A DNA stretch of 64,000 nucleotides, taken from the NCBI GenBank assembly GCA_965228475.1, contig OZ245817.1:3296001-3360000 (forward strand), read 5' to 3'. The notes under the pieces are model-generated. The model worked only from the letters and a program-made list of their open reading frames with translations, searched no databases and was not told the DNA's origin. The translations under genes were made by a program, and so were the position numbers. This document shows positions 1,673 through 46,313 of this stretch, piece by piece; within the stretch, counting starts at the first letter, position 1; the number at the start of each line of letters is the position of its first letter. Source of the DNA: Myxococcota bacterium (GTDB lineage: Bacteria; Myxococcota_A; UBA9160; JAFDDA01).

Positions 1673-2662
1673 GTGCCGCGGCTAGCGCGCTCGCCGCTCC
1701 TGCACTTTCTTCTCCTCGGCGGCCTGGCGTTCCTCGTCGTCCCGGAGGCGAAGCCGGTCCTCCAGGTCGACCCGGACGCCGTCGCCCGAACCTTCGCCGC
1801 GGAGGCCGGGCGCCCGCCGACTCCCGCCGAGCTCGAGCGCAACGTCGAACGGGAGATCGATGCCCGCGTCCTCGAGGCCGAAGCCTGGCGGCGGGGCCTC
1901 GACCGCCACGACTCGGCCGTGGCCACCCGCCTGGCGCGAATCGGGGACTTCGTGGACCCGGACGCCCCCGCTTCGGAACGCGCAGCCCGGGTGCGCGCGA
2001 TCGGGGCGGACCGGAGCGATCCGGTGCTCCGCGCGTACCTCGCCGAGCGCATGCGCAAGCTCCTGCTCGAGGACGTCGAAGCCGAAGCCGCCTCCGACGC
2101 GGTCCTGGCCGTGCACCTCGCCGCCCACCCGGAGCGCTTCGCGCGGACCGAGCGGCTCGTCGTCGAGCACGTGTTCCGCCGCGGCCCCGGCTCTCCCGAG
2201 GCGGACGACGCGTTCGCGGAGAGGCTGGCCGGGCTCACGCCGGCCGAGGCCGCGCGCCACGCGGACCCCTTCCCGCTGCCCAGCCGCATCGCCGGCTCGC
2301 GCGCCGAGATCGAGCGCGAGCTCGGCCCGGGCGCCACGCGCGGGCTCGACCCGGGCGCTCTCGAGCGCTGGCAGGGCCCGCTGCGCGGAACCCTCGGGCG
2401 CCACTGGATGTGGGTCTCGGCGTACGACCCGCCCCACGCCCCGACCCTCGAGGCCGTGCGCGCGGAGGTCGAAGCGGATTGGCGAGCGGCCCGCCGCGGC
2501 GCGCATCTGGCGCGGAGGCTGGCGGAGCTGCGCGAGCGCTACGAGGTGCGGCGCGCCGAGAGGATCGCCGCCACGAGCGCCTCGGGAACGTCCTCGGGGA
2601 TCGGCGCATCCTCGCCGCAGTCGCGGCAGATCGACTTGCCGAGTTCGACGGTGCGGCGGTAG
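1673..2662 (+). CDS. PpiC/rotamase-like membrane-anchored protein
   Basis: N-terminal PLLHFLLLGGLAF anchor, EA.RRGLD..D..V, W.GP....G.H and LRERYEV resemble PpiC-type (Rotamase_2) proteins. The last ~40 codons overlap the convergent anti-sigma gene. Confidence 0.7.
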   Translation: MPRLARSPLLHFLLLGGLAFLVVPEAKPVLQVDPDAVARTFAAEAGRPPTPAELERNVEREIDARVLEAEAWRRGLDRHDSAVATRLARIGDFVDPDAPASERAARVRAIGADRSDPVLRAYLAERMRKLLLEDVEAEAASDAVLAVHLAAHPERFARTERLVVEHVFRRGPGSPEADDAFAERLAGLTPAEAARHADPFPLPSRIAGSRAEIERELGPGATRGLDPGALERWQGPLRGTLGRHWMWVSAYDPPHAPTLEAVRAEVEADWRAARRGAHLARRLAELRERYEVRRAERIAATSASGTSSGIGASSPQSRQIDLPSSTVRR

Positions 2663-2787
2663 GTGTCGAGGTAGACCTCGCACGGCGGGCAGTCGGCGAG
2701 ATGCGCTTCGAAGTGGGCGCGCTGCTCGGCCGGCAGCTCGGCGTCGAGGTACGCCATCAGGAAGTCCACCATCTCCTTGCAGGTCAT
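2539..2787 (-). CDS. zf-HC2 anti-sigma factor
   Basis: MTC..MVDFLMAYLD.EL and HLADCPPC (HxxxCxxC). ATGA overlap with the ECF sigma gene. Confidence 0.9.
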   Translation of the reverse strand: MTCKEMVDFLMAYLDAELPAEQRAHFEAHLADCPPCEVYLDTYRRTVELGKSICRDCGEDAPIPEDVPEALVAAILSARRTS

Positions 2788-3389
2788 CCGCTCTCCTCCT
2801 GCACGAGATCGGGCTCGAGCAGCGTCCGCAGCGCCTGTCGCGCCCGGTGCAGGCGCGTCTTCACCGCTCCCGTGCTGAGCGAGAGCGCCTCGGCCGTCTC
2901 CTCCGTGTCGAGCCCTTCCACGTCCCTTAGAAGCAGGATCGTCCGATAGGTTTCGGGGAGTTCGTGAATCCGGTCGAAGACGAGCTGCCGGAGTTCCCGG
3001 CGCTCGAGGGCCTCGTCCCCGGGCGCGGCCCAGGCCGGGGTCGGCTTCTCCATGTGGCCGTCCTCGATGAACTTCGGGAGGAGCGCGTCGATCGGCTCCT
3101 CGGGCTTGCGGCGGCGCGTGCGCATCTTCATCAGCGCGGCGTTCACGACGATGCGGTGCAGCCAGGTCCCGAGCTGGGAGCCGCCCTCGAAGCGGTCGAT
3201 GGCCTTGAAGGCGGAGAGGAACGCGTCCTGGACGGCGTCGCCGGCGTCGTCGTCGCTGCGCAGCATGCGCTTGGCGACGGCGAACATGCGGCCGCCGTGG
3301 GTGCGGACGAGCTGTTCGTAGGCCGCCTCGTCTCCCGCGCGCAGCCCCTCGAGCAGCTTGCCCTCGTCCGGCGGCGGGGGCGCGCTCAC
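2784..3389 (-). CDS. ECF RNA polymerase sigma-70 factor
   Basis: Region 2 DAVQDAFL.AF..I..F.G.S.LGTWL.RI..N and region 4 LP..YR.ILLLRDVEGL...ETA..L..S.GAVKTRLHRAR. Confidence 0.95.
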   Translation of the reverse strand: MSAPPPPDEGKLLEGLRAGDEAAYEQLVRTHGGRMFAVAKRMLRSDDDAGDAVQDAFLSAFKAIDRFEGGSQLGTWLHRIVVNAALMKMRTRRRKPEEPIDALLPKFIEDGHMEKPTPAWAAPGDEALERRELRQLVFDRIHELPETYRTILLLRDVEGLDTEETAEALSLSTGAVKTRLHRARQALRTLLEPDLVQEESG

Positions 3390-3427
3390 GGGGCGGCGGG
3401 ATCCGGCGGCGACGGAGGCGTGCTCAC
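3386..3427 (-). CDS. Putative 13-aa leaderless upstream ORF (MSTPPSPPDPAAP) coupled to the ECF sigma gene
   Basis: GTG at 3427 lies 7 nt after TAACCT. Its TGA (3388..3386) overlaps the sigma GTG. The peptide resembles the sigma N-terminus MSAPPPPD. Confidence 0.45.
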   Translation of the reverse strand: MSTPPSPPDPAAP

Positions 3428-3434
3428 GGGGCGG

Positions 3435-3444
3435 AGGTTACCAT
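3435..3444. promoter_or_regulatory. Overlapping divergent -10 elements (bidirectional, leaderless-type promoter)
   Basis: AGGTTACCAT gives TACCAT (+, 8 nt before ATG 3453) and TAACCT (-, 7 nt before GTG 3427). Confidence 0.55.
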
Positions 3445-3452
3445 GGGCCGCG

Positions 3453-3980
3453 ATGTCCGCCCTGCTCCGCTTCCTCGGGATCCGCCCCGCCACCCCCGCC
3501 GAGAGCCGTGACGCCGAGACCGATTCGGTCCGCCGGATCGCCGCCCGGCTCGACCAGCTCGACCCGCAGATCGCGAAGTACCTCGCGGCCTTCGCCTACG
3601 TGCTCGCGCGCGTCGCCCACGCCGATCTCGAGATCGACGAAGCGGAGACCGAGAAGATGCAGGACGTGGTGGCGCGGGTCGGCAAGCTCTCGGAGGACGA
3701 GGCCGTGCTCGCGGTGGAGATCGCGAAGTCCCAGGCGCGCGTCCTCGGCGGCACCGAGAACTACGTCGTCACGCGGGAGTTCCGACGCATCTCGAGCCCG
3801 ACCCAGCGGAGCCAGCTGCTCGAGTGCCTCTACGCGGTGGCCGCGGCCGACGGGGCGATCTCGAGCGTCGAGTCCCAGGAGATCCGCAGCATCGCCGAGG
3901 AGCTCGGATTCACGCGCGACGAGGCGAACGCCCTGCGCTCCCAGTACCGAGATCAGATCTCGGTACTGAAGAAGGACTGA
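3453..3980 (+). CDS. TerB-family (tellurite resistance/DjlA N-terminal-like) protein
   Basis: Start trimmed to MSALLRF. Motifs LARVA.AD.EI.E.E and LYAVAAADG.IS..E..EIR.IA.ELG. Confidence 0.85.
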   Translation: MSALLRFLGIRPATPAESRDAETDSVRRIAARLDQLDPQIAKYLAAFAYVLARVAHADLEIDEAETEKMQDVVARVGKLSEDEAVLAVEIAKSQARVLGGTENYVVTREFRRISSPTQRSQLLECLYAVAAADGAISSVESQEIRSIAEELGFTRDEANALRSQYRDQISVLKKD

Positions 3981-3989
3981 GCGGCTGCC

Positions 3990-4673
3990 TCAGTTCCGGA
4001 TCAGGAGCAGCGACTGCGGGTCGAGCGCGACGTGCAGCGCGGAGACGTCCGGGTTGTCGTGATCCTTGAGGGCCCGGAGCACGACGGCGTCCTGGCCGGG
4101 CTCGAGGGCCAGTACCACGCTCACCTCACCCTGGGCCGGCCCGAGCCGGTCCGGCAGGCCCGCGACCTTCTCCTCACCGCCCGCGACGGCCAGCCAGAGC
4201 TCGAGGCCGTGCTCCGCGGCGAGCTCCCGCAGGGCCTTCACGTCCGTCGCCGCCAGCACCTCGGCACCGTCGACGATCACCACGTTCGGCTTCTTGCCGG
4301 CCTCCGCCTCGAGGCCGAGCGCTTCCCGGAGCTTGCCCACGTGGAAGCCTTCGGAGGCGTAGACGCGGATGCTGCGGCGGCTGTCGGCCTCGGCGTGCAC
4401 CGTGGCCGCGTCCTCGAGCTTGCTCTGCTGGGAGAGTTCGTCGAAGACGGTGTCGTAGTAGGTCCGGATGTGATCGACGGTCTGATCGAGGCCGACGTGG
4501 AGCACGTTGTGGTCGCGCAGCAGGTGGTCGAGCGCCATCCCGACCAGGAAGGAAGACTTGCCGACGCCGTGGCCCGCCAGGACCACGCCGAGGTTCCCCG
4601 CGCCGAGGCCGCCGTGGAGGCCTTTCTCGAGCATGCGGATCGGGCTTCGGGCCGTCAGATACTCGCGGTACAT
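3990..4673 (-). CDS. RecA-fold (DnaB/KaiC-like) P-loop ATPase, function unknown
   Basis: GGL.AGNLGVVLAGHGVGKSS Walker A and VVIVDG Walker B. Lies directly downstream of fusA. Confidence 0.75.
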   Translation of the reverse strand: MYREYLTARSPIRMLEKGLHGGLGAGNLGVVLAGHGVGKSSFLVGMALDHLLRDHNVLHVGLDQTVDHIRTYYDTVFDELSQQSKLEDAATVHAEADSRRSIRVYASEGFHVGKLREALGLEAEAGKKPNVVIVDGAEVLAATDVKALRELAAEHGLELWLAVAGGEEKVAGLPDRLGPAQGEVSVVLALEPGQDAVVLRALKDHDNPDVSALHVALDPQSLLLIRN

Positions 4674-4733
4674 CGCTCCCCCTGAAACTCGCGGGCGTCA
4701 CGCACCCGCGAAGACTGGGCGTCTCTTGCCAGT

Positions 4734-6833
<2,100 letters not shown>

Positions 6834-31552: not shown

Positions 31553-31568
31553 TGGCATGGCGATTGCA
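31553..31568 (+). promoter_or_regulatory. Sigma-54 (-24/-12) promoter
   Basis: TGGCATGGCGATTGCA = GG-N10-GC. IHF-like TTTCAGTGACTTA at 31516..31528. Precedes a PEP-CTERM gene. Confidence 0.8.
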
Positions 31569-31606: not shown

Positions 31607-32350
31607 ATGCGCTCGGCTCTCTCCTTGCGTTCGACCACGGCGCTTGCGGCAGCGACGACCTTCCTTCTGGCAGGTCGGGCCGACGCTCTGACCATCGATT
31701 GGAGTGCACTCCCCGACCAGACCTCCCCCACCACGATCTCCCAGGTCGATCAGGAAACGGGCACGACGGTCACGGCGACGGCGTCTGCCTGGCTGGCGAA
31801 CGGCTCGGTCACGTCGCTCGACCCCAATGATCCCATCGGTTCTGGGTTCACCCCTCTGGGAGTCAACATCGGTGGCGCCAACCCGGGCTCGCCGGGCTCC
31901 TCCACCCACGGTCTCGGCTGCCACGCAACCATCGACACGGAATGCGAAGAGCACCCGGTCTTCGAGGGTGGTGTCGACACCCTGGCGGAGGTCCTGCTGA
32001 TCGAGTTCGACGTGCCGGTCACCGTCGAAGCCTTCATCGGGTCTGCGATGGAGTACCACGATGAGATTGGTGCGCTGAATTGGGATGGAAGCGCGTTCGA
32101 GCTCCTCGGATTCAGCCCCTGCGACCCCTTTGGCGGCCCGTTCTGTTCGGGCGAGGAGTTGATCGGTTCAGGGGCCTATCCCGCGCACGCACCGACTCGC
32201 TTCTTTGCACTCTTTACCGCGACCACGGTTCTTCTCCCGTCGTTCAAGCTGACCCGAATCGAGGGCGTAACCCCCTTCCCGGTGCCCGAACCGTCGCTTG
32301 TTCTGCTGCTCGGGATCGGCCTCCTCGCCATCGCGCACCGGCACGGCTGA
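31607..32350 (+). CDS. PEP-CTERM sorting-domain protein
   Basis: Signal peptide ending ADA, C-terminus VPEPSLVLLLGIGLLAIAHRHG. AAGGAG RBS. Confidence 0.9.
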   Translation: MRSALSLRSTTALAAATTFLLAGRADALTIDWSALPDQTSPTTISQVDQETGTTVTATASAWLANGSVTSLDPNDPIGSGFTPLGVNIGGANPGSPGSSTHGLGCHATIDTECEEHPVFEGGVDTLAEVLLIEFDVPVTVEAFIGSAMEYHDEIGALNWDGSAFELLGFSPCDPFGGPFCSGEELIGSGAYPAHAPTRFFALFTATTVLLPSFKLTRIEGVTPFPVPEPSLVLLLGIGLLAIAHRHG

Positions 32351-33176: not shown

Positions 33177-33346
33177 GCGGCCCACAGGCGTTTCATGGAC
33201 GAGAAGCCCCCTTTCGGGGCCACGATACACGAGGCGCTGCGGCATCGAGCGCCCGGAAAACCCGGCACAGCCAACCTCTCCACGAGAGTATGATGGTCTC
33301 GTCATGGCGCCTGGGCGCATGCCCGTGGCACGACGCGAGAACCACC

Positions 33347-34333
33347 ATGCCCCGTCCCTCCCCGGCCACCCTCGACCTGGTGATCCCGATCTACGACGAA
33401 GAGCGGGTGCTCCCGACCCTCCTCTCGCGGCTCGACGAGGTGTTCTCCCCCGCCGCCCTCGCGGACCACGGGATCTCGCGCGTGCGCTACCGCTTCGTCG
33501 ACGACGGCAGCCGGGACGCCTCGGCCGCCGTGATCTGTGACCACAAGGCTCCGCCGGGACGGATCGTGCTCTACCGGCTCTCCCGGAACTTCGGGCACCC
33601 CAACGCCGTCTCCGCCGGGCTCGACCACGCCGATGCCGACGCCGTCGCCGTCCTCGACGCGGACCTCCAGGACCCGCCCGAACTCGTGCTCGAGATGCTC
33701 GAGCGCTGGCGCGAAGGCGTCGACGTCGTCTTCGCCCAGCGGCGCAAGCGCAAGGAGAACGTCCTCAAGCGCGCCGGCTATTGGGCCTTCTACCGCATCG
33801 TCTCCTTCCTCTCGGACCTCGACGTCCCCCTCGACAGCGGCGACTTCTGCCTGATGGACCGGCGCGTGGTCACCGCGCTGCGCGAACTTCCCGAGCGGCT
33901 GCGTTTTCCGCGCATCCTGCGCAGCTGGGTCGGCTTCCGGCAGGCGGGCGTCGAGTACGACCGCCCGGAGCGGGCCGCCGGGAAGACGAAGTACGGCATC
34001 GCGCGCCTCTACCAGCTCGCGACCGACGGCATCGCTTCCTCGAGCATCCGGCTGCTGCGCGTCGCCCAGCTCTTCAGCTTCACCTTCGCCGCCATCACCG
34101 CGCTCCTGTGCGGGTTCCTCCTCTACGAGGTCGGCACCTACGGGGGCGATCGCGAGGGGCTCGTGGTGCTCGGCGGGCTCATCCTCGTCGCGGGCGGGAA
34201 CTTCGTCATCACCACGTGTCTCTACATCCTGGGCGCCTACGTCGGGCGAACCTACCTCGAGGTGAAGGGACGGCCGCCGTATCTCGTCATGGAGGTCGTG
34301 GACCCCGGCGAGCGCAGGGAGTCCACGCGATGA
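33347..34333 (+). CDS. GT2 polyprenyl-phosphate glycosyltransferase (GtrB-like)
   Basis: VIPIYDEE, FVDDGSRD, LSRNFGH, LDADLQDPP, GDFCLMDRRVV, WVGFRQ, two TM helices, G.YVGRTY.EVK.RP.Y. Confidence 0.93.
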   Translation: MPRPSPATLDLVIPIYDEERVLPTLLSRLDEVFSPAALADHGISRVRYRFVDDGSRDASAAVICDHKAPPGRIVLYRLSRNFGHPNAVSAGLDHADADAVAVLDADLQDPPELVLEMLERWREGVDVVFAQRRKRKENVLKRAGYWAFYRIVSFLSDLDVPLDSGDFCLMDRRVVTALRELPERLRFPRILRSWVGFRQAGVEYDRPERAAGKTKYGIARLYQLATDGIASSSIRLLRVAQLFSFTFAAITALLCGFLLYEVGTYGGDREGLVVLGGLILVAGGNFVITTCLYILGAYVGRTYLEVKGRPPYLVMEVVDPGERRESTR

Positions 34334-38622: not shown

Positions 38623-38638
38623 CGGCACGGGTCTTGAA
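38623..38638 (+). promoter_or_regulatory. Sigma-54-like promoter (variant -12)
   Basis: CGGCACGGGTCTTGAA = GGCACG-N4-TTGA. IHF-like ATACAACTATTTG at 38578..38590. Confidence 0.55.
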
Positions 38639-38681: not shown

Positions 38682-40769
38682 ATGCCCGTCCGACCCGTTC
38701 GCCGTTCCGTTCTGTGCCTTTCCCTCTTGCTCGGCTTCACCCTCGCGCCCACGTGCGGGCCCGCGCCGACCCCCACGATCCGGATCGTCACGCCCGAGAC
38801 CGGCGACGTGGTCTTCTCGTCCCTGCCCTCCGTGGGCGGGCCCGGTGTTCGCGTCGAGGTGGAGGTCGAGAACGCGCTCGGCCGGATCTTCGTCTTCGTG
38901 AACGGCCAGGCCGCCTCGCGCATCGGCTTCACGAACCGCTACGAGCTCGACCTCGCCCTCGACGCAGACCAGCGCTTCCAGCCCATCCTCGCGGAGATCC
39001 AGGTCGGCACTTCGACCGTGGCCGTGGATCGGGTGGTCGCCCTCTGGGGCTTCGAAAGCGACGAGAACGATCCGGTTCCCGACGCCATCGCCCTGCGCAT
39101 GAACGACGAGGACTCGGTCCTCGACCACGTGGAGCCGTCGCTGACGGACGCGGTCCAGGCCGCCGTCGACCTCGAGGCGCTCGTCGAGGACCTGCTCGGC
39201 CAGCTCGAGTTCCTCCAGCCGGGCTTCTCCCTGCCCTTCGGCATCCGCATCGGCGACGCCGGCGGCACGGTCGCCGCGACCATCCCGCCCTACGAAGTCC
39301 GCATCAACGCGCAGAACACGCCCGCGGCGTCGCCCGGCGGCACGCTCGGCCTGACCGTCGATGCCGACGACGTGGCACTCCGGCTCGAGCTCCCGCTCGA
39401 GGGCTTCGTGATCAACAACGGGACGTGCGTGATCCTCGTCGGCTTCGACGCGTCGCTGCACGTGGATCTGGATCTCGAGCCCGGCGCGGACCCCCACGGC
39501 CTCGGCTTCGAGCAGATCGGCCCGGTCGACTTCGACCTCGACGGCTTCTCGGCCTCCCTCGGCTCGGGCGGCGACTGCCCCGACGTGGTCGTGAACAACT
39601 TCCAGTCCTTCCTCGACGGCTCGGGCTTCTCCGACGTCCAGGACGAGATCGCGGGGGCCTTCAACGACCTGCTCGGCGGAAGCGGCGTCTCCATCGCCTC
39701 CCTGCTCGAGGAAGGCTTCAACGAGAGCGAACTCGACCTCTCGGGCGTGATCGGCTCCTCGCTCTCGGGCTCGCTCGACCTGACCTACGGCTCGATCCCC
39801 GAAGACGACGACGGCGTCACCGCCTTCCTCGATGCGCTGATCGGCGTGCCGACGCCCGCCGGCCCGACGCCCTTCTGCCCGAGCACGATCTGCCCGCGGC
39901 CGGACTTCGACTCCGTCTACCTCGGCAACGGCCCGCTCACGCTGCCCGACTTCGCCAACGACGGGCAGATGACGCCCCCGGTCGGACTCATCGGGTTCCC
40001 GGGCTATCAGCCGCCGCAGCCCTACGACCTGGCGGTCTCGTTCAGCAACCGCGTCATCAACAAGATGCTGCTCGACATGATCGAGCAGGGACTGCTCTCG
40101 GCGACGATCACCGAGGTCCCGGACCCGTTCTCGGCCGGGACGATCCCGCTCAGACTCGACGTCCTCGACCTCTATTTCCTGATCGAGACGGGCGCCACCT
40201 ACCTGGGCCCGATCGCCGCCGAGATGCCCGACGGCTCGGCCACCCCGGTGCGCATCACCGTGGCGCCCGAGATCCCGGCGCTCGTCGTGCCCACCGAACC
40301 GGGCGGGGTCCTGATCCCGGACGGCGTGCCGCGGCGCGAAGTGCAGATGGCCCAGCTCGCGCTCCGCGTGCAGATGGAAACGTCCGCCGGCTGGAAGACC
40401 CTCATCAAGGGCTACGTCGACCTGAGCGCGGACCTCTCGATCGGGCTCGGTGGAAGCGGCCTTTCGGCCGGCCTCGGAACGCCCGCGATCGAGGAGTTCG
40501 TCCTCGTCTACAACCTGCCGGACGTGCCCCCGACCGTGCTGCGCTCCTTCCTCGAGGACAACTTCGCGGCGATCGCCGGCGCGGTGGACGTGGCCTCGGG
40601 CGAGATCGCGAGCCTGCCGCTGCCGGCCTGCGTGCTCGGGCTCCAGCTCGAACCGCTCCTGCTGCGCGAGCACGGCGGGGACTTCTTCACCGTCTACGCC
40701 TCCCTCGAGGAGGTCCAGAACGAAGTCCTGGCCTGCGGCGACCCGATCTTCACCCCGCTTCTGCCCTGA
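38682..40769 (+). CDS. Large acidic exported hypothetical protein (possible lipoprotein)
   Basis: GGAGG RBS, signal peptide with Cys (TLAPTC), Ig-like N-terminal stretch, long amphipathic beta/alpha pattern. Confidence 0.78.
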   Translation: MPVRPVRRSVLCLSLLLGFTLAPTCGPAPTPTIRIVTPETGDVVFSSLPSVGGPGVRVEVEVENALGRIFVFVNGQAASRIGFTNRYELDLALDADQRFQPILAEIQVGTSTVAVDRVVALWGFESDENDPVPDAIALRMNDEDSVLDHVEPSLTDAVQAAVDLEALVEDLLGQLEFLQPGFSLPFGIRIGDAGGTVAATIPPYEVRINAQNTPAASPGGTLGLTVDADDVALRLELPLEGFVINNGTCVILVGFDASLHVDLDLEPGADPHGLGFEQIGPVDFDLDGFSASLGSGGDCPDVVVNNFQSFLDGSGFSDVQDEIAGAFNDLLGGSGVSIASLLEEGFNESELDLSGVIGSSLSGSLDLTYGSIPEDDDGVTAFLDALIGVPTPAGPTPFCPSTICPRPDFDSVYLGNGPLTLPDFANDGQMTPPVGLIGFPGYQPPQPYDLAVSFSNRVINKMLLDMIEQGLLSATITEVPDPFSAGTIPLRLDVLDLYFLIETGATYLGPIAAEMPDGSATPVRITVAPEIPALVVPTEPGGVLIPDGVPRREVQMAQLALRVQMETSAGWKTLIKGYVDLSADLSIGLGGSGLSAGLGTPAIEEFVLVYNLPDVPPTVLRSFLEDNFAAIAGAVDVASGEIASLPLPACVLGLQLEPLLLREHGGDFFTVYASLEEVQNEVLACGDPIFTPLLP

Positions 40770-40812
40770 CCCGCGTCGGAACGCATTCGGAAACCTGGAA
40801 AGGAACGTTGTC

Positions 40813-42255
40813 ATGACTCATTCGATCCGCACTCTGGCGCGGGGACTCGCAATCGCGATCGCCGTCGCCCTCTCCTTCGACGCCCCGGCGGCGCCGATCC
40901 TCCACGGCGACTTCGACGGCGCGACGGTGACCTTCAACGCCGTCACCGAAGAGGCCCTCACCCCCGGCGACGGCCCGATCCTGTTCGGAACGCCTTCGGT
41001 CGTCGGCGACGAGCTCGACTTCAACCCCACCTCGTTCGCGGCCTCGGCGACCGGGGCCGGGGGCGTCGACGTCACCGACGGCCTGCTGCAGTTCGAGGTG
41101 AAAGCGCGCCCGGGCTACGTGATCGACGAGATCACGTTCTCGGAGCGCGGGGACTACACCCTCGTGGGCGGCGGCGGCGCCGGAACCTTCGCCTCCGTCC
41201 AGGCCGCCGTCTTCGGGGAGATCCTCGAGGTCTCGGGCATCGAGCTGGCCGCGGCCATCCGCTTCCAGGGGAACTTGACCTTCACGCCGTCCGACGGCGA
41301 CTTCGACCTCGCGACCGACGGCGTCGCGGTCGCGCGGATCTTCCACGGATCCATCGCCTTCGATCTCCAGGCCGTGCTCGACGCCGCGGGCGTGACGGGC
41401 GAAGTGACCCGCGTCGGGTTCGCCCTCGACAACACGCTCGTCGCGACGAGCGAGTTCGGGACCAGCGCCTTCATCGCCAAGAAGGACCACGACGGCGCCG
41501 CGGTCGGCGTCGCGGTGGTGACCGACGTGCCCGAGCCGCAGCCCGGCGAACTGCTCGCCCTGGCGGCCCTCCTGCTGTTCGTCACCTCCGGGCGCATTCG
41601 CTTCCGGGGCACGCTCGCGGTGCTCGCCGGGCTCGCGACCCTCTCCGGGGGCTCGGCGATGGCCGCCCCCTTCACCTTCGAGAGCGGAACGATCACGGGG
41701 ACCTACGACTTCGCCACGGGGCGGACGCGCGGCGCCCTCGAGTTCGACCCGAACGACGGCTCGCCGGTGGACTACTCAGACTACAGCCTCTCGTTCGACT
41801 TCGACGGCCTGGTCGCCCTCGTCGGCGGAACCTCGGCCAACGGCACGTGGTCCGGCGACGCCGAGACCTCGGCCGGCCGCAACGCCCGCCTGCGCATCAC
41901 CATCGACGACGGCGACCCGGGCGCGTGGACCGCTTCACCGGGGCCCGGCCGGACGGAGCTCGGGCTGGGAACCCACGTCGTCCTCGATGCACCGATCGCG
42001 TTCCTCCCGAACGAAGAGCGCGACGTCCCCCTGCTCCCGGAGCACTACACCGAGCTTCGTGTCCTCGCCGAGTTCGACCTCGTCGACTGGGTCTGGGACG
42101 CGAGCGAGTTCGCGGGGAACGTGACCGGCTACGCGTTCAGCGGAACGTTCGAGCTCCAGGCGGTGCCGGAGTCTTCCCTCGTCATCCTGCTCGGCGGCGC
42201 CGCGATTGCGCTGGGCGTCGTGCGCAGCGGCCTGCGGCGCCCCTGCCTTTCCTGA
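40813..42255 (+). CDS. Protein with two PEP-CTERM sorting signals (internal VPEP and terminal VPES)
   Basis: 480 aa: signal peptide, domain 1, VPEP+TM+RIRFR, second signal-like segment ending AMA, domain 2, VPES+TM+RSGLRR. Confidence 0.85.
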   Translation: MTHSIRTLARGLAIAIAVALSFDAPAAPILHGDFDGATVTFNAVTEEALTPGDGPILFGTPSVVGDELDFNPTSFAASATGAGGVDVTDGLLQFEVKARPGYVIDEITFSERGDYTLVGGGGAGTFASVQAAVFGEILEVSGIELAAAIRFQGNLTFTPSDGDFDLATDGVAVARIFHGSIAFDLQAVLDAAGVTGEVTRVGFALDNTLVATSEFGTSAFIAKKDHDGAAVGVAVVTDVPEPQPGELLALAALLLFVTSGRIRFRGTLAVLAGLATLSGGSAMAAPFTFESGTITGTYDFATGRTRGALEFDPNDGSPVDYSDYSLSFDFDGLVALVGGTSANGTWSGDAETSAGRNARLRITIDDGDPGAWTASPGPGRTELGLGTHVVLDAPIAFLPNEERDVPLLPEHYTELRVLAEFDLVDWVWDASEFAGNVTGYAFSGTFELQAVPESSLVILLGGAAIALGVVRSGLRRPCLS

Positions 42256-42283
42256 TGCGCCGCCGTCGCGAAGCGCGGCCCGG

Positions 42284-42308
42284 GGGGCGGGGCACGGTGC
42301 CCCGCCCC
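42284..42308. terminator. GC-rich hairpin between convergent genes
   Basis: Perfect inverted repeat GGGGCGGGGCAC / GTGCCCCGCCCC followed by TCTT. Confidence 0.6.
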
Positions 42309-42323
42309 TCTTCCGCGAAACGC

Positions 42324-43019
42324 TCAGGCGGTGCCTTCGACCCTGCGGATCGCCGAGAGCATGACGGTCTCGAGCTGGTCCACGAAGTCCATGGCCACGG
42401 CCATGGCTTCCTCCGAATCGCCGCGCTCGATGGCGTCGAACATCGCCCGGTGGAGAGGGACGTAGCCATCCGGCACGAAGACCGGCGCAGGCGAGAGCTC
42501 GTCGGGCCGCATGTGGTCGATCTCGTTCAGCACCCAGAGCAGCGGGAAGAGCTTGGCCGGCTCGAGCACCGCACGCAGCATGGCCAGGTTGTGGGAGGTG
42601 AAGCGTGCGGCGTCCGAACGCGCCTCGAAGGCGCGCTCGAGATGATCCCGCGCGTCGTCGAGATCCCTCGCCCCGAGCCGCCGCACGGCTGTCCGCACCA
42701 TGATCCGATAGAAGAACCGGATCAGATCGACCGCGTCGTGCGCGAGCGTCGCGGCCGGTGGGAACGTCCCGACGCTCCCCTCCGGAAGATGCGCCAGCAC
42801 CCCGGGCCGCCAGCGGCCGGGGCCGAGCGCCGCGGGGCCCTCCTCGGTCTGCGTCACGACCCGGAGCCGGAGGAGCTCCGCCAACGCCAGCTCCGGGGTC
42901 GGCTCGGGCGTCGGACCGGAAGAGAGCAGTTCACCCGGCTCGAGCTTGCCTTCGAGCACGGCGCTGATCACCCCCGTGACGGCTGCGACCGTCGGGTCGA
43001 CTCGATTCGTGGCGTCCAT
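42324..43019 (-). CDS. GntR/FCD-like transcriptional regulator, divergent
   Basis: N-terminal V..G.LEPG.LL, C-terminal H..MFDAI..GD.E.A..... typical of the FCD domain. GGAG RBS. Confidence 0.6.
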   Translation of the reverse strand: MDATNRVDPTVAAVTGVISAVLEGKLEPGELLSSGPTPEPTPELALAELLRLRVVTQTEEGPAALGPGRWRPGVLAHLPEGSVGTFPPAATLAHDAVDLIRFFYRIMVRTAVRRLGARDLDDARDHLERAFEARSDAARFTSHNLAMLRAVLEPAKLFPLLWVLNEIDHMRPDELSPAPVFVPDGYVPLHRAMFDAIERGDSEEAMAVAMDFVDQLETVMLSAIRRVEGTA

Positions 43020-43054
43020 GGCGATCTCTCCTCGGCTCGTTGAACTCTCGCGGA

Positions 43055-43618
43055 CTACTTCTTCCCGCTGGAACGGCTCTTCCCCTTGCCGCGCCCGCGC
43101 GGCTCGCGAAACCAGGGAAGCCCGTCGTACCAGCCTTTGATCGCCTCGCCGTAGGCGAGGGCGAAGCGCAGCGTGTAGCCGCGCGGGGAATCGAGCTCCT
43201 CCTCCGGCAGACTCGCCGCGAGCTTCTCCCAGGTCTTGAGGAGCTTCTCGTGGCGGGAGCGGTGGAGGCTCAGGAACCAGCCGAGCTCGTTCTCGCGCAG
43301 GTGCTCCCCGAACCAGAGCGTGAGCAGCATCGGGAATCGGAAGATCTCCGGCCCGGGCTCGCGGGAGATCCACTCGGCGAAGGCTTCACGCCCCTCGTCG
43401 GTGAGGGTGTAGACGCGGCGATCGCGCTGGCCGCGCTCGCCGCCGCGCACGAAGCCCGCCTCCTCGAGCGTCCGCAGCTCCCGGTACACCTGGCTGCGCG
43501 TGACGTTCCAGAAGTACCCGATGGTCGAGGCCGCCTGCTCGGCGACGTCCCAGCCGGACTTCGGCCCGTCGTGGAGGAAGCCGAGGACGGAGTAGGCGGT
43601 GGCGTTCGGGCGGGCCAT
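43055..43618 (-). CDS. PadR-family transcriptional regulator
   Basis: VLGFL..GP.SGWD, FW....SQVYREL..LE..G.V, RRVYTLT..GR.AF..W. TAGTCT lies 6 nt before the ATG. Confidence 0.92.
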   Translation of the reverse strand: MARPNATAYSVLGFLHDGPKSGWDVAEQAASTIGYFWNVTRSQVYRELRTLEEAGFVRGGERGQRDRRVYTLTDEGREAFAEWISREPGPEIFRFPMLLTLWFGEHLRENELGWFLSLHRSRHEKLLKTWEKLAASLPEEELDSPRGYTLRFALAYGEAIKGWYDGLPWFREPRGRGKGKSRSSGKK

Positions 43619-44118: not shown

Positions 44119-44447
44119 GACGCAATTCCCCCGTGCGGCGCGGACGCCGCGTTTTCAAGATCACGAGCTCGATGGAGGGGGAGCCGACCGGGGTCGGGTC
44201 GTCGACGCGCGAGCTACTTCAACGTCGACACCGTCGGGAAGTGCAGACGACGTGCCAACGCGGGAGCGCTGCGAGTTCGCAGTGCAGCGGTCGAAACGGA
44301 CTCGCTCGGTAAGAACTGCTCCTCGCGACGTCGACGGGTCGCAAGGCTTACCGGCCGTCGCACGCCGACCGCCTTGACTCGCGAATCAGCCTCGTGCCAC
44401 GCTGCCGCATCGTCGCCCGGCGCCCACCGGGCCATGGAGGGAAACCC

Positions 44448-46313
44448 GTGCCGATCGTCACCCTGCGCTCCCGCACCGCCCTTGCGGCCGCCGCCCTGTG
44501 CCTGCTCAGCCTGCCCTACGCCCCGGACGCCTCGGCAAACGGCTCCCAGAGCCTCGAGCAATGCGCGGCCAGCAAGCTGCGCGCCGCGGCCGAGGCCTGC
44601 GAGGGGCTCGTCGGTGCCTACGCCCTCCCGGACCGCAGCTGGTTCGGCCACTCGCCGCGCGAGGCCCGCATCGAGCGCGCCCTCGCGGACCTGTCCGACG
44701 CCTACGCCGCGGCCGACGCCATCGCGATCGAAACCGGCGCGGTCTGTTCGGACTCGACCGGCGGCGCCGGCGAGACCGCCGACGCGATCGCGAGCGCGGC
44801 CGAAGCCCTCGCGAGCGCCATCCAGTCGGGCGACGACGAGCCGGGCTGGGGCTTCTTCGGTTTCTTCCGCGCCTGGATCGCCAAGCTGCACCAGAAGTAC
44901 CAGCTCTTCGCGACGGCCCAGCTCTGCGGGAACCTCGTCGACGCCGAAGCCCGTCACCTCTTGAACCGCGACGAAGACCGCCTGCGCGAGGGCCTCGCGG
45001 AGAAGCAGGACCGGGCCTTCCACCGCTTCGATCGCTTCTGGGCGCTCCTCGCCCTGATCTTCCACTCGGATTCGGGCCCCGACCCGAACGCGATCGCCGA
45101 CGACGTCGACGCGCTCACGGGCGACGTCGTGCTCGCCGTCGCGGTCTCGCCGCTCATCTCTCCCGAGTGGGTGCGGGTCGACCCCGAAGCCGTCGTCTCC
45201 TACGAAGGACGCGACCTCGAGCCGACCTGCTGGGACGGCGAGCCGTGGTCCTTCTTCGTGAAGGGCGGCTCCGTCAACAAGCTCGTCATGTACTACCAGG
45301 GTGGCGGCGCCTGCTGGAGCGGCATCACCTGCGGCGGCCTGCCTTCGCTCGGCATCGGGCCGACCTTCAAGCAGACCGTCGGCGGAAGCCCCGCCGGCTT
45401 CAGCAGCGGCTTCGCCGACCTCGACAACCCGGAGAATCCCTTCAGGGACTGGAACCAGGTCTTCGTCCCCTACTGCACGGGCGACGTCCATTGGGGCGAT
45501 GCGGTCGTCGAGTACGAAACGGCCGAGTCCGGGCCGCTGACCGTGCGCCACAAGGGCTTCGTGAACTCCCAGGTCGCCGAGAAGTTCGCACGCGAGCACT
45601 TCGTCCACCCCGAGGACGTCTTCGTCACGGGTTCGAGCGCCGGGGCCTACGGCGCCATCGTGAACTCCCTCTACCTCCAGGAGCGCGCCTACCCCTCGGC
45701 CCAGTTCACCGTCGTCGGTGACGCCGGAAACGGCGTGATCACGCCCGACTTCCTCGTCGACGACCTCTCGAACTGGGGCATCCAGAACAACCTCCCGCCG
45801 TGGATGCCCGGGCTGAACGTCCCCTTCGAGGAGCTCGAAGCCGCGGATCTCTACATCGAGGCCGCCAAGACCTACCCGGGGAATCGCTTCGCCACCTACA
45901 CGACGGCCTACGACGGTGGCCAGGGCGGCCAGACGGGCTTCCTGAACATCATGCGGACGGGCGAGAACGTGATCTTCTGGATCCGCTGGTGGGACGCCTC
46001 GTGTGACTGGAACACCGAGATGCTCGCCCTGAACGAGCGCGCCGCCGACGAGGCCCCGGACAACTTCCGCTACTACGTGGGAACGGGCTCGGCGCACACG
46101 GCCTGGGGCCGGCCCAAGGTCTACGACGACACGACGGGCGGTGTCCCGACTCTCCGGGACTGGCTCTCGGAGATGCTCGTGGGCGGCCCGGGCTGGACGA
46201 ACGTCGTGGCCGAGGACTTCGGCGTCCTGCTCGACGGCGACCCGCGCGCCAACCCGGCCTTCGGCAACGTCGAGCCCTTCGATCTCGAAGCGGGAAGGAT
46301 CGTCTGCGACTGA
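44448..46313 (+). CDS. Pectinacetylesterase/Notum-family hydrolase with N-terminal extension
   Basis: Signal peptide, C.DG, YYQGGGACW, NPF.DWN.VFVPYCTGDVH.G, VTGSSAGAYG. GGAGG RBS. Confidence 0.88.
   Translation: MPIVTLRSRTALAAAALCLLSLPYAPDASANGSQSLEQCAASKLRAAAEACEGLVGAYALPDRSWFGHSPREARIERALADLSDAYAAADAIAIETGAVCSDSTGGAGETADAIASAAEALASAIQSGDDEPGWGFFGFFRAWIAKLHQKYQLFATAQLCGNLVDAEARHLLNRDEDRLREGLAEKQDRAFHRFDRFWALLALIFHSDSGPDPNAIADDVDALTGDVVLAVAVSPLISPEWVRVDPEAVVSYEGRDLEPTCWDGEPWSFFVKGGSVNKLVMYYQGGGACWSGITCGGLPSLGIGPTFKQTVGGSPAGFSSGFADLDNPENPFRDWNQVFVPYCTGDVHWGDAVVEYETAESGPLTVRHKGFVNSQVAEKFAREHFVHPEDVFVTGSSAGAYGAIVNSLYLQERAYPSAQFTVVGDAGNGVITPDFLVDDLSNWGIQNNLPPWMPGLNVPFEELEAADLYIEAAKTYPGNRFATYTTAYDGGQGGQTGFLNIMRTGENVIFWIRWWDASCDWNTEMLALNERAADEAPDNFRYYVGTGSAHTAWGRPKVYDDTTGGVPTLRDWLSEMLVGGPGWTNVVAEDFGVLLDGDPRANPAFGNVEPFDLEAGRIVCD

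Follow-up and report, generated by a model that had tools for sequence, protein, structure and literature searches.

PEP-CTERM/exosortase sorting is widespread in environmental bacteria and its biochemistry has barely been tested, including where exosortase cuts, what serves as the acceptor and what is required of the cytoplasmic tail. Internal signal peptides cut by signal peptidase are a feature of viral envelope polyproteins and of FbcH, the cytochrome b/c1 precursor of Bradyrhizobium. In excerpts of the PEP-CTERM description, rare matches with long tails are mentioned and dismissed as possibly non-functional (Haft et al., 2006; PMC1569441). Passages of a more recent article from the Wall laboratory (mBio, 2025; PMC11980579) state that sorting tags of the C-terminal type also work at mid-protein positions and propose that an internal MYXO-CTERM is processed, with MXAN_5598 of Myxococcus xanthus treated there as a single atypical case. 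We analyzed a window of 64,000 nucleotides from a Myxococcota bacterium (assembly GCA_965228475.1, contig OZ245817.1, positions 3,296,001 to 3,360,000), in which a 480-codon open reading frame (ORF) at 40813..42255 (+), hereafter P0001, has the layout of a tandem PEP-CTERM precursor. As judged from sequence, P0001 is a natural in-frame fusion of two complete precursor genes of exosortase-sorted surface proteins, and its product would probably be resolved into two mature proteins.

Layout of the tandem precursor

The frame begins with M1 at 40813 and closes with a stop at 42253-42255, giving a stop-free translation of 480 residues, and the NCBI and ENA entries likewise hold P0001 as one 480-aa protein. 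The G+C content at third codon positions (GC3) is 0.88-0.98 in a single frame in nine of nine 150-nt blocks (0.96 over the junction, 41563-41712); since it stays high throughout, the whole ORF is coding in one frame. A purine run resembling a ribosome-binding site (GGAAAGGAA, 40797..40805, +) lies 8-16 nt upstream, with AGGA 8 nt 5' of the ATG. Hydropathy analysis with an 11-residue window gave hydrophobic segments at residues 8-24, 245-260, 267-278, and 454-470, and a minor extra peak at 229-239.

All the elements of the sequence-only reading were found where it had placed them in this frame, with V239 at nt 41527 and V451 at nt 42163, and both predicted mature domains do start with AP (A27-P28 and A285-P286). 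The predicted N-terminal signal peptide (residues 1-26; 40813..40890, +) has R6/R10 in its n-region, the hydrophobic h-region LAIAIAVAL under the 8-24 peak, and the c-region APA/AP (slashes mark predicted cuts). It is followed by the unit 1 passenger (residues 27-238; 40891..41526, +), a beta-sandwich domain from a PEP-CTERM protein family that is widespread, and by the internal PEP-CTERM signal (residues 239-265; 41527..41607, +), which consists of VPEP, the hydrophobic helix GELLALAALLLFVTSG under the 245-260 peak, and the basic RIRFR. The h- and c-regions of an internal signal peptide come next (residues 266-284; 41608..41664, +; GTLAVLAGLATL SGGSAMA), the whole segment reading GTLAVLAGLATLSGGSAMA and then APF, with a predicted cut after A284. 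By inspection, residues 261-284 have the composition of a Sec signal peptide cleaved by signal peptidase I (SPI), i.e., RIRFRG, the 11 residues TLAVLAGLATL, and SGGSAMA with A282 and A284. The unit 2 passenger (residues 285-450; 41665..42162, +) is a near-orphan, beta-rich domain, and the terminal PEP-CTERM-like signal (residues 451-476; 42163..42240, +) is made up of VPES, the helix SLVILLGGAAIALGVV, and the basic RSGLRR, after which a four-residue tail, PCLS (residues 477-480), ends the protein.

By our arithmetic, stops make up ∼0.019 of random codons at 70% GC, and the loss of a stop would be expected to add ∼52 codons of read-through, against the 215 present here, which end 5 residues past a second sorting signal; chance read-through therefore does not explain P0001. 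ORFs of this kind are currently annotated as one hypothetical protein, and rules of C-terminal placement make no provision for the internal signal.

Assembly support and strain variants

We compared the Logan contigs of four public runs (X1-X4, from three studies) with positions 40700-42350. The contigs of X1 (38.8 kb) and X2 (13 kb), either of which may itself be the source data of the assembly, cover the entire interval with no differences and no gaps, and the X3 contig (902 nt) has no differences over 40823-41695. The X4 contig (1,306 nt; marine metagenome, depth 2) has 20 other letters and no gaps over 40927-42232. The uninterrupted junction claimed from the sequence was thus upheld by contigs of four runs, the divergent variant included, with neither a stop nor a frameshift. 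The 18 listed X4 substitutions create no stop and comprise 10 synonymous and 8 non-synonymous changes, three of the latter within 61 nt of the end of this thin contig. Within unit 2 (residues 285-450), eight are synonymous vs. two non-synonymous, which is indicative that the reading frame of unit 2 is under constraint.

Another assembly encodes, on a 2.55-Mb contig, a protein of 480 aa that is 99% identical to P0001 (P0005, the representative of a 90%-identity cluster) and differs by three substitutions, D227G, I262M, and L274V. The last two, in the internal signal-peptide region, are conservative strain changes. From P0005 and the X4 evidence, the fusion is therefore present in at least two strain-level variants. 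Codon 262 (41596-41598) is ATT (Ile) in P0001 and ATG (Met) in both the sister assembly and the X4 variant, at exactly the point where a stand-alone unit 2 gene would begin (M-RFRGTLAV...); this codon may be left over from an internal start or represent a step towards one.

Stand-alone relatives of the two units

We searched 5.8 billion clustered proteins (264-840 aa) for homologues of unit 1 and of the fusion; the only matches besides P0005 were nine stand-alone proteins of 266-300 aa with 38-52% identity and ∼50% query cover, two of which carry PF07589. In all nine, the C-terminal PEP is aligned with the internal PEP of P0001, P240, E241, and P242 being invariant, and A26, A27, and I29 around the end of the signal peptide are invariant or nearly so. 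These homologues stop 1-6 residues past the basic cluster (e.g., with the tails GRRIRS and SRRFRGT), except P0011, whose tail is longer. By this alignment, the internal signal is the ordinary C-terminal signal of the unit 1 family and RIRFRG(T) its ordinary tail. The internal copy has the PEP motif (VPEP, 239-242), the helix (peak 3.2), and the basic cluster (R261, R263, R265) of such signals, and 215 residues come after it where a C-terminal location would be expected.

Unit 1 homologues are present in the genomes of 11 of 40 relatives, and each one inspected is a gene by itself whose product terminates with the signal; no unit 2 gene lies downstream of the closest among them (48% identity, in G016). 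At 25 named loci from metagenome-assembled genomes (MAGs) of Planctomycetota, Myxococcota, and Verrucomicrobiae, the unit 1 family occurs in arrays of separate genes with no fused orthologue, and 38 of the 40 matches to a regular expression (regex) for the signal are terminal, the two flagged as internal being noise in one case and a 55-residue tail in the other. At one of these arrays (L078, Verrucomicrobiae MAG, 2474-5080, +), three PEP-CTERM genes share one reading frame and are set apart by no more than a stop plus ∼10-16 codons, such that a single stop loss would give a fused precursor. AlphaFold models unit 1 as a beta-sandwich, with a block-mean predicted local distance difference test (pLDDT) of ∼61-93 across residues 21-240 and 47 in block 161-170. 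Its best fold match in PDB is Bd1399 (template-modeling score 0.46 on the target), followed by CBM-like (carbohydrate-binding) modules; the likeness is weak.

Unit 2 had no match in a word-index search of proteins of 122-391 aa. An exhaustive HMMER search of 1.84 billion representatives gave three relatives besides the near-identical P0005, two of which, P0019 (207 aa) and P0020 (180 aa), are stand-alone and cover most of the query in alignment. For P0019, the alignment extends from an N-terminal signal peptide of its own (MAIRGTAIWLSVMAWLSGG...AFA/MP) through to a PEP-CTERM (TIGR02595, 27.6 bits); the sequence of P0020 begins inside the h-region and has VPEPS at its end. The internal signal peptide of P0001 aligns with the N-terminus of P0019, a distant relative (E 1.5e-4, 32% identity), and the terminal VPES aligns with the VPEPS of both proteins. 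For unit 2 the AlphaFold pLDDT is 22-35 (22-45 with the junction included) and the models are unusable; the fold search was informative, weakly, for unit 1 alone. A paralogous relation between the two halves of P0001 was rejected (E 0.083). These alignments indicate that each half of P0001 descends from a complete stand-alone precursor. The sequence-only reading had proposed that one basic cluster serves both signals, and this idea gained support: RIRFRG(T) matches the tails of unit 1 homologues (RRFRGT, RRIRS) as well as the n-region of P0019 (MAIRGT), and it fits because RFRGT at the junction resembles both.

Recurrence of the junction

A six-frame TIGR02595 scan of the genome gave 83 rows, of which 65 exceeded the cut-off, with three pairs of rows in the same stop-free frame. 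A regex scan of all 38,873 open frames (60 aa or longer) returned exactly four frames with two signals, P0001 and three further tandem ORFs (P0002, P0003, and P0004) at G000:C1:1532850-1533959 (+), 1689878-1691356 (-), and 4197019-4198542 (-) (loci L016, L017, and L018). Each of the three has a signal peptide, a unit, a VPEP-helix-arginine cluster, an h-region with a small-x-small site, a second unit, and a terminal VPEP signal, and their junctions read RRRR-IPTAFGLAF..ANA/Q, RRKSRR-GALVAVLAG..ATA/A, and RRRRGFRG..TARA/F. The halves of P0002 are paralogous, with both signal peptides in the alignment (34% identity, E 7e-15), and its cluster consists of three members, from different sources, each of them fused and 369 aa long. 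For unit 2 of P0004, G027 carries a stand-alone homologue of 242 codons that opens with its own signal peptide (MRMRMLGIGAIGLLLAAPAPA/IEIF). In these two sister cases, P0002 and P0004 (vs. G027), the sequence comparisons point clearly to descent of the internal signal peptide from an N-terminal one. The internal signals of P0002 and P0003 reach 23.7 and 24.2 bits against TIGR02595; since these scores exceed those of their own terminal signals, internal signals are not generally degenerate. None of the four tandem proteins was matched in the same-genus genome G001.

A profile (A1) built from the four junctions of this genome was applied to 151 genomes of the order and gave at least seven verified junctions in 6 of the 150 other genomes, a count that is a lower bound, with 41 candidates scored per genome and 109 further matches beyond those listed. 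The second unit ends in PEP-CTERM in two of the verified junctions (G008:C45 and G121:C6) and in a different hydrophobic-basic tail in G087:C14, and is without such a tag in four (G108:C14, G126:C175, G008:C42, and G150:C52). An h-region and a small-x-small site follow in six of the seven and a possible lipobox in one; with this genome included, 10 of 11 verified junctions keep, by our reading, the small-x-small site after the h-region. As the junction recurs, in four ORFs here and at least seven in 6 of the 150 others, it appears to be a class rather than a one-off.

Some of these loci have features of their own. In L051 (G008:C42, 1748-3766, -), the internal PEP-CTERM precedes a segment with LLAGLGTTGC at its end, possibly the signal of a lipoprotein and not an SPI site. 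L055 (G108:C14, 2687-7708, +) and L057 (G126:C175, 3378-8189, -) encode giant proteins of ∼1600-1670 codons with an internal PEP-CTERM and signal peptide and without a terminal PEP-CTERM, the G108 frame carrying FG-GAP-like repeats; because of their similar Cys-containing tails (...RCDAALSP...), they look like orthologues that have kept the junction across two genera. Two candidates were rejected. The one at G044:C82 was a false positive, as the PEPQPGELL of the internal signal of P0001 also matches the N-terminal LPEPQPGELLV of a medium-chain dehydrogenase (L052, 2298-3464, +), a trap for motif searches, and the one at G091:C87 is a terminal signal of the usual kind, followed by a tail of 32 residues. 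A phylum-wide search with A1 (401 genomes, 15 candidates scored per genome, E<=1e-4) re-found, outside this genome, the G121 junction alone, and it was too insensitive to say anything on frequency outside the order.

The check suggested by the sequence-only reading, a search of related genomes for the fused junction, was thus positive for the type of junction; the fusion in P0001 itself was found only in near-identical strains. Where the question is whether homologues are always two genes, P0001 fares badly, as nine of nine unit 1 homologues are single genes and the fused form occurs solely in those strains. By these comparisons the fusion in P0001 is young, at strain level, and its most likely origin is a tandem array in which stop, spacer, and start were lost.

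Machinery and proposed processing

The genome encodes two exosortases (PF09721, 186.4 and 170.2 bits; TIGR02602, 165.9 and 126.3 bits, cut-off 105.55) and has three SPI matches. By the genome-level criterion it holds an exosortase system, with the exosortases accompanied by many PEP-CTERM proteins.

The rules of Sec signal peptides, stop-transfer helices, the positive-inside rule, and the -3/-1 rule underlie the mechanism that we propose, in which the topology of P0001, its two internal cleavages, and the ratio of its products are inferred. Unit 1 would be exported by Sec behind the first signal peptide until the first PEP-CTERM helix stops the transfer, leaving RIRFR in the cytoplasm. TLAVLAGLATL would then re-enter the translocon N-in/C-out, with the same arginines as its n-region, and a short helical hairpin would form; unit 2 would be exported in turn until the second PEP-CTERM-like helix stops the transfer. 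SPI would cut after A26 and A284 (AMA/AP) and each PEP motif would be cut by exosortase. Two mature proteins in a fixed 1:1 ratio would result, together with a hairpin peptide of ∼42 residues, which would be degraded.

Such a natural substrate, with an internal tag and a tail continuing into a helix, offers a direct test of the requirements of exosortase, as a free C-terminal tail would not be required if the internal tag is cut. If the proposal is true, P0001 would be one of the rare polyproteins of bacteria that are resolved at a signal peptide inside the chain and would provide a built-in 1:1 reporter pair for sorting. Tentatively, and with considerable doubt, one may go further and suppose that tandem sorted-precursor polyproteins are a general, selected route in exosortase bacteria, by which a disposable hairpin with shared arginines, cut by SPI and exosortase, delivers two or more matrix proteins in fixed stoichiometry to the same membrane site, the junction being a portable one assembled repeatedly from unrelated passengers.

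Counter-evidence and alternative explanations

Several observations weigh against two exosortase-sorted proteins being released from P0001 or against the fusion having been selected. The internal signal has no TIGR02595 or PF07589 match at E<=10 in the whole protein, and it has an unusual QPGE, which places a glutamate where the helix begins. The terminal signal scores below the TIGR02595 cut-off of 16, with 14.8 bits as a fragment and 13.6 bits in the six-frame scan; its motif is VPES, not VPEP, followed by the helix at 454-470 and by RSGLRR with the four-residue tail. No match spanning both halves was found in the 40 relatives, the same-genus G001 (89% completeness) included, and the near-identical P0005 is the sole such match among the 5.8 billion clustered proteins. 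The ratio of 10 synonymous to 8 non-synonymous changes over the whole X4 contig makes the constraint on the protein only moderate.

The two TIGR02595 matches that the sequence-only reading had expected accordingly failed to appear, the internal signal giving none at E<=10 and the terminal one remaining below the cut-off, and the membership of P0001 in PEP-CTERM therefore rests on homology. A 31-aa fragment with the internal signal, scanned against NCBIfam alone, also had no match at E<=10, and this signal is absent from the 83 TIGR02595 rows of the genome. In the X4 variant, S454P restores a canonical VPEP at the terminal signal, at a site 61 nt from the end of the depth-2 contig.

The alternative that survives best, to which we give a substantial minority of the weight, accepts the fusion as real and supposes that its product is not fully processed. 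It would then remain in the inner membrane as a single hairpin protein, both domains lying in the periplasm, or be cut at one of the internal sites only (e.g., unit 1 freed by exosortase and unit 2 held on an uncleaved signal anchor). The internal PEP-CTERM is indeed atypical and without a match to its hidden Markov model (HMM), the h-region spans just 11-12 residues after a very short loop, and exosortase may not accept a substrate with a tail running into another helix. Excerpts of the original description regard atypically placed or long-tailed PEP-CTERM signals as possibly non-functional, a further point against release of both proteins (Haft et al., 2006; PMC1569441). On the other hand, the PEP is intact and invariant among the aligned homologues, the A-x-A site is kept and aligned with the cleavage region of P0019, the small-x-small site follows the h-region in 10 of the 11 verified junctions, and the internal signals of P0002 and P0003 do exceed the TIGR02595 cut-off. 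Mid-protein sorting tags are, moreover, stated to be functional in passages of the MYXO-CTERM article (PMC11980579).

It is unlikely, in our estimate, that P0001 is no more than a recent, neutral or mildly harmful accident of stop loss or deletion in a tandem array, with a topology that happens to fit, no selected advantage, and perhaps decay under way. The confinement of the fusion to strain level and the failure of all four tandem proteins to match in G001 agree with such an accident, as does a fast turnover of this protein class, described in excerpts of Haft et al. (2006; PMC1569441). PEP-CTERM genes sit in tight same-strand arrays, sometimes in frame with spacers of ∼10-16 codons as in L078, so fusions should arise often. 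A neutral origin from packed arrays is plausible; it is incompatible with a selected advantage, though not with correct processing. Nevertheless, no remnant of a spacer is left, the basic tail abutting the h-region, and an exact deletion would have been needed, as is seen in several independent junctions; the eight synonymous vs. two non-synonymous substitutions in unit 2 also speak against mere accident.

Similarly improbable is that unit 2 is also or mainly made alone from an internal start near codon 262, in which case the ratio of the two products need not be 1:1. I262M is present in P0005 and X4, MRFRGTLAVLAG...AMA would be a textbook signal peptide, and codon 270, a GTG, could also serve as a start. 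By our reading, however, no purine run resembling a Shine-Dalgarno sequence precedes codon 262 or 270; ATT is rare as a start, the lack of a stop after unit 1 means that the fusion product would be made anyway, and the other three junctions of this genome have no methionine. An artefact of assembly or sequencing, in which a lost stop or an indel wrongly joined adjacent genes, can be dismissed almost entirely: the assembly is indeed a single contig with high G+C and homopolymer-type runs that could invite indels, but contigs of four runs from three studies agree without gaps, the divergent variant included, the second assembly has a 480-aa product that differs by three substitutions, GC3 is continuous in one frame, and P0002 is fused at equal length in three cluster members from different sources.

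Genomic neighborhood

The ORF upstream of P0001 (38634..40769, +) has 711 aa from its first TTG, with ATG 38682 as the likelier start. Its product looks exported and of no known family, with a hydrophobic N-terminus ending in the lipobox-like LAPTC and with no match to a Pfam family (E<=0.001) or an NCBIfam family (E<=1). Co-transcription with P0001 is likely because 43 nt separate its stop (40767-40769) from the ATG of P0001. Beyond the P0001 stop, a G+C-rich hairpin of 13 bp (42282..42310, +) could act as a terminator for both P0001 and the convergent gene; a 70-nt stretch folds at -43.7 kcal/mol (z = -2.2) and 6 of 200 shuffles fold as well, and the terminator reading is weak because there is no U tract. 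The downstream neighbors are the convergent gene, for a regulator with an FCD domain (GntR-type; 42324-43373, -), and a gene for a pectinacetylesterase (PAE)-domain protein (44394-46313, +). A family-2 glycosyltransferase is encoded at 33290-34333.

No convincing sigma-54 promoter was found before P0001, the nearest candidate (38623-38637) having two mismatches and a broken -12 element, and the window as a whole has 34 matches to the sigma-54 pattern vs. 39.8 expected by chance. One sigma-54-like site, TGGCATGGCGATTGC at 31553-31567 (+), has one mismatch to TGGCAC-N5-TTGC, in a window where such matches are not above chance. It lies ∼40 nt upstream of a PEP-CTERM gene of 247 aa (31607-32350, +; PF07589, 20.6 bits vs. 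a cut-off of 20.7).

Comparison with known systems

The NCBIfam family NF033207 is named 'midcut-by-XrtH protein', which implies a mid-protein cut by an exosortase; we take it to be one dedicated family tied to XrtH and not a general layout of tandem precursors. Membership in it was rejected, as P0001 has no match, P0002 reaches 14.1 bits against a cut-off of 45, and the best score in the genome is 11.8 bits; the junction region of P0002 (147-234) faintly matches positions 28-112 of the model. Viral envelope polyproteins and FbcH share with P0001 the succession of a stop-transfer helix and a signal-like helix, an SPI cut on the far side, and two membrane-associated products. They have, in contrast, no C-terminal sorting tag and no sortase-like enzyme, whereas each unit of P0001 would need two proteases.

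Our literature search, in whose scope Haft et al. 2012 did not fall, returned no publication on tandem or internal PEP-CTERM precursors or on midcut-by-XrtH. The sequence-only reading had called the architecture undescribed; this stands insofar as no PEP-CTERM case was found in the literature, and it is softened by the internal MYXO-CTERM in passages of PMC11980579, by the long-tailed matches in those of Haft et al. (2006), and by the name of NF033207. According to the portions of PMC11980579 cited here, MXAN_5598 of M. xanthus resembles P0001 in having a sorting tag in mid-protein, attributed to the fusion of two genes, with the N-terminal part proposed to be processed and surface-anchored. 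It differs in that its tag has an invariant Cys and is served by a myxosortase (CPBP-type protease), and what lies downstream is an outer-membrane barrel with an OmpA domain, not a second sorted unit (PMC11980579). Assignment of P0001 to MYXO-CTERM was rejected, as residues 230-260 and 440-476 have no Cys and the motifs are VPEP and VPES; it would work alike without being a member. The closest likeness is to the canonical PEP-CTERM/exosortase system (EpsH, Xrt; TIGR02595, PF07589), as it appears in excerpts of PMC1569441, with which P0001 shares the PEP motif, a helix of ∼14 residues, the arginine cluster, and an N-terminal signal peptide, and unit 1 is homologous to ordinary PEP-CTERM proteins. 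Unlike canonical substrates, P0001 has two units in one polypeptide, with one of its signals located 215 residues from the C-terminus and running directly into a signal peptide.

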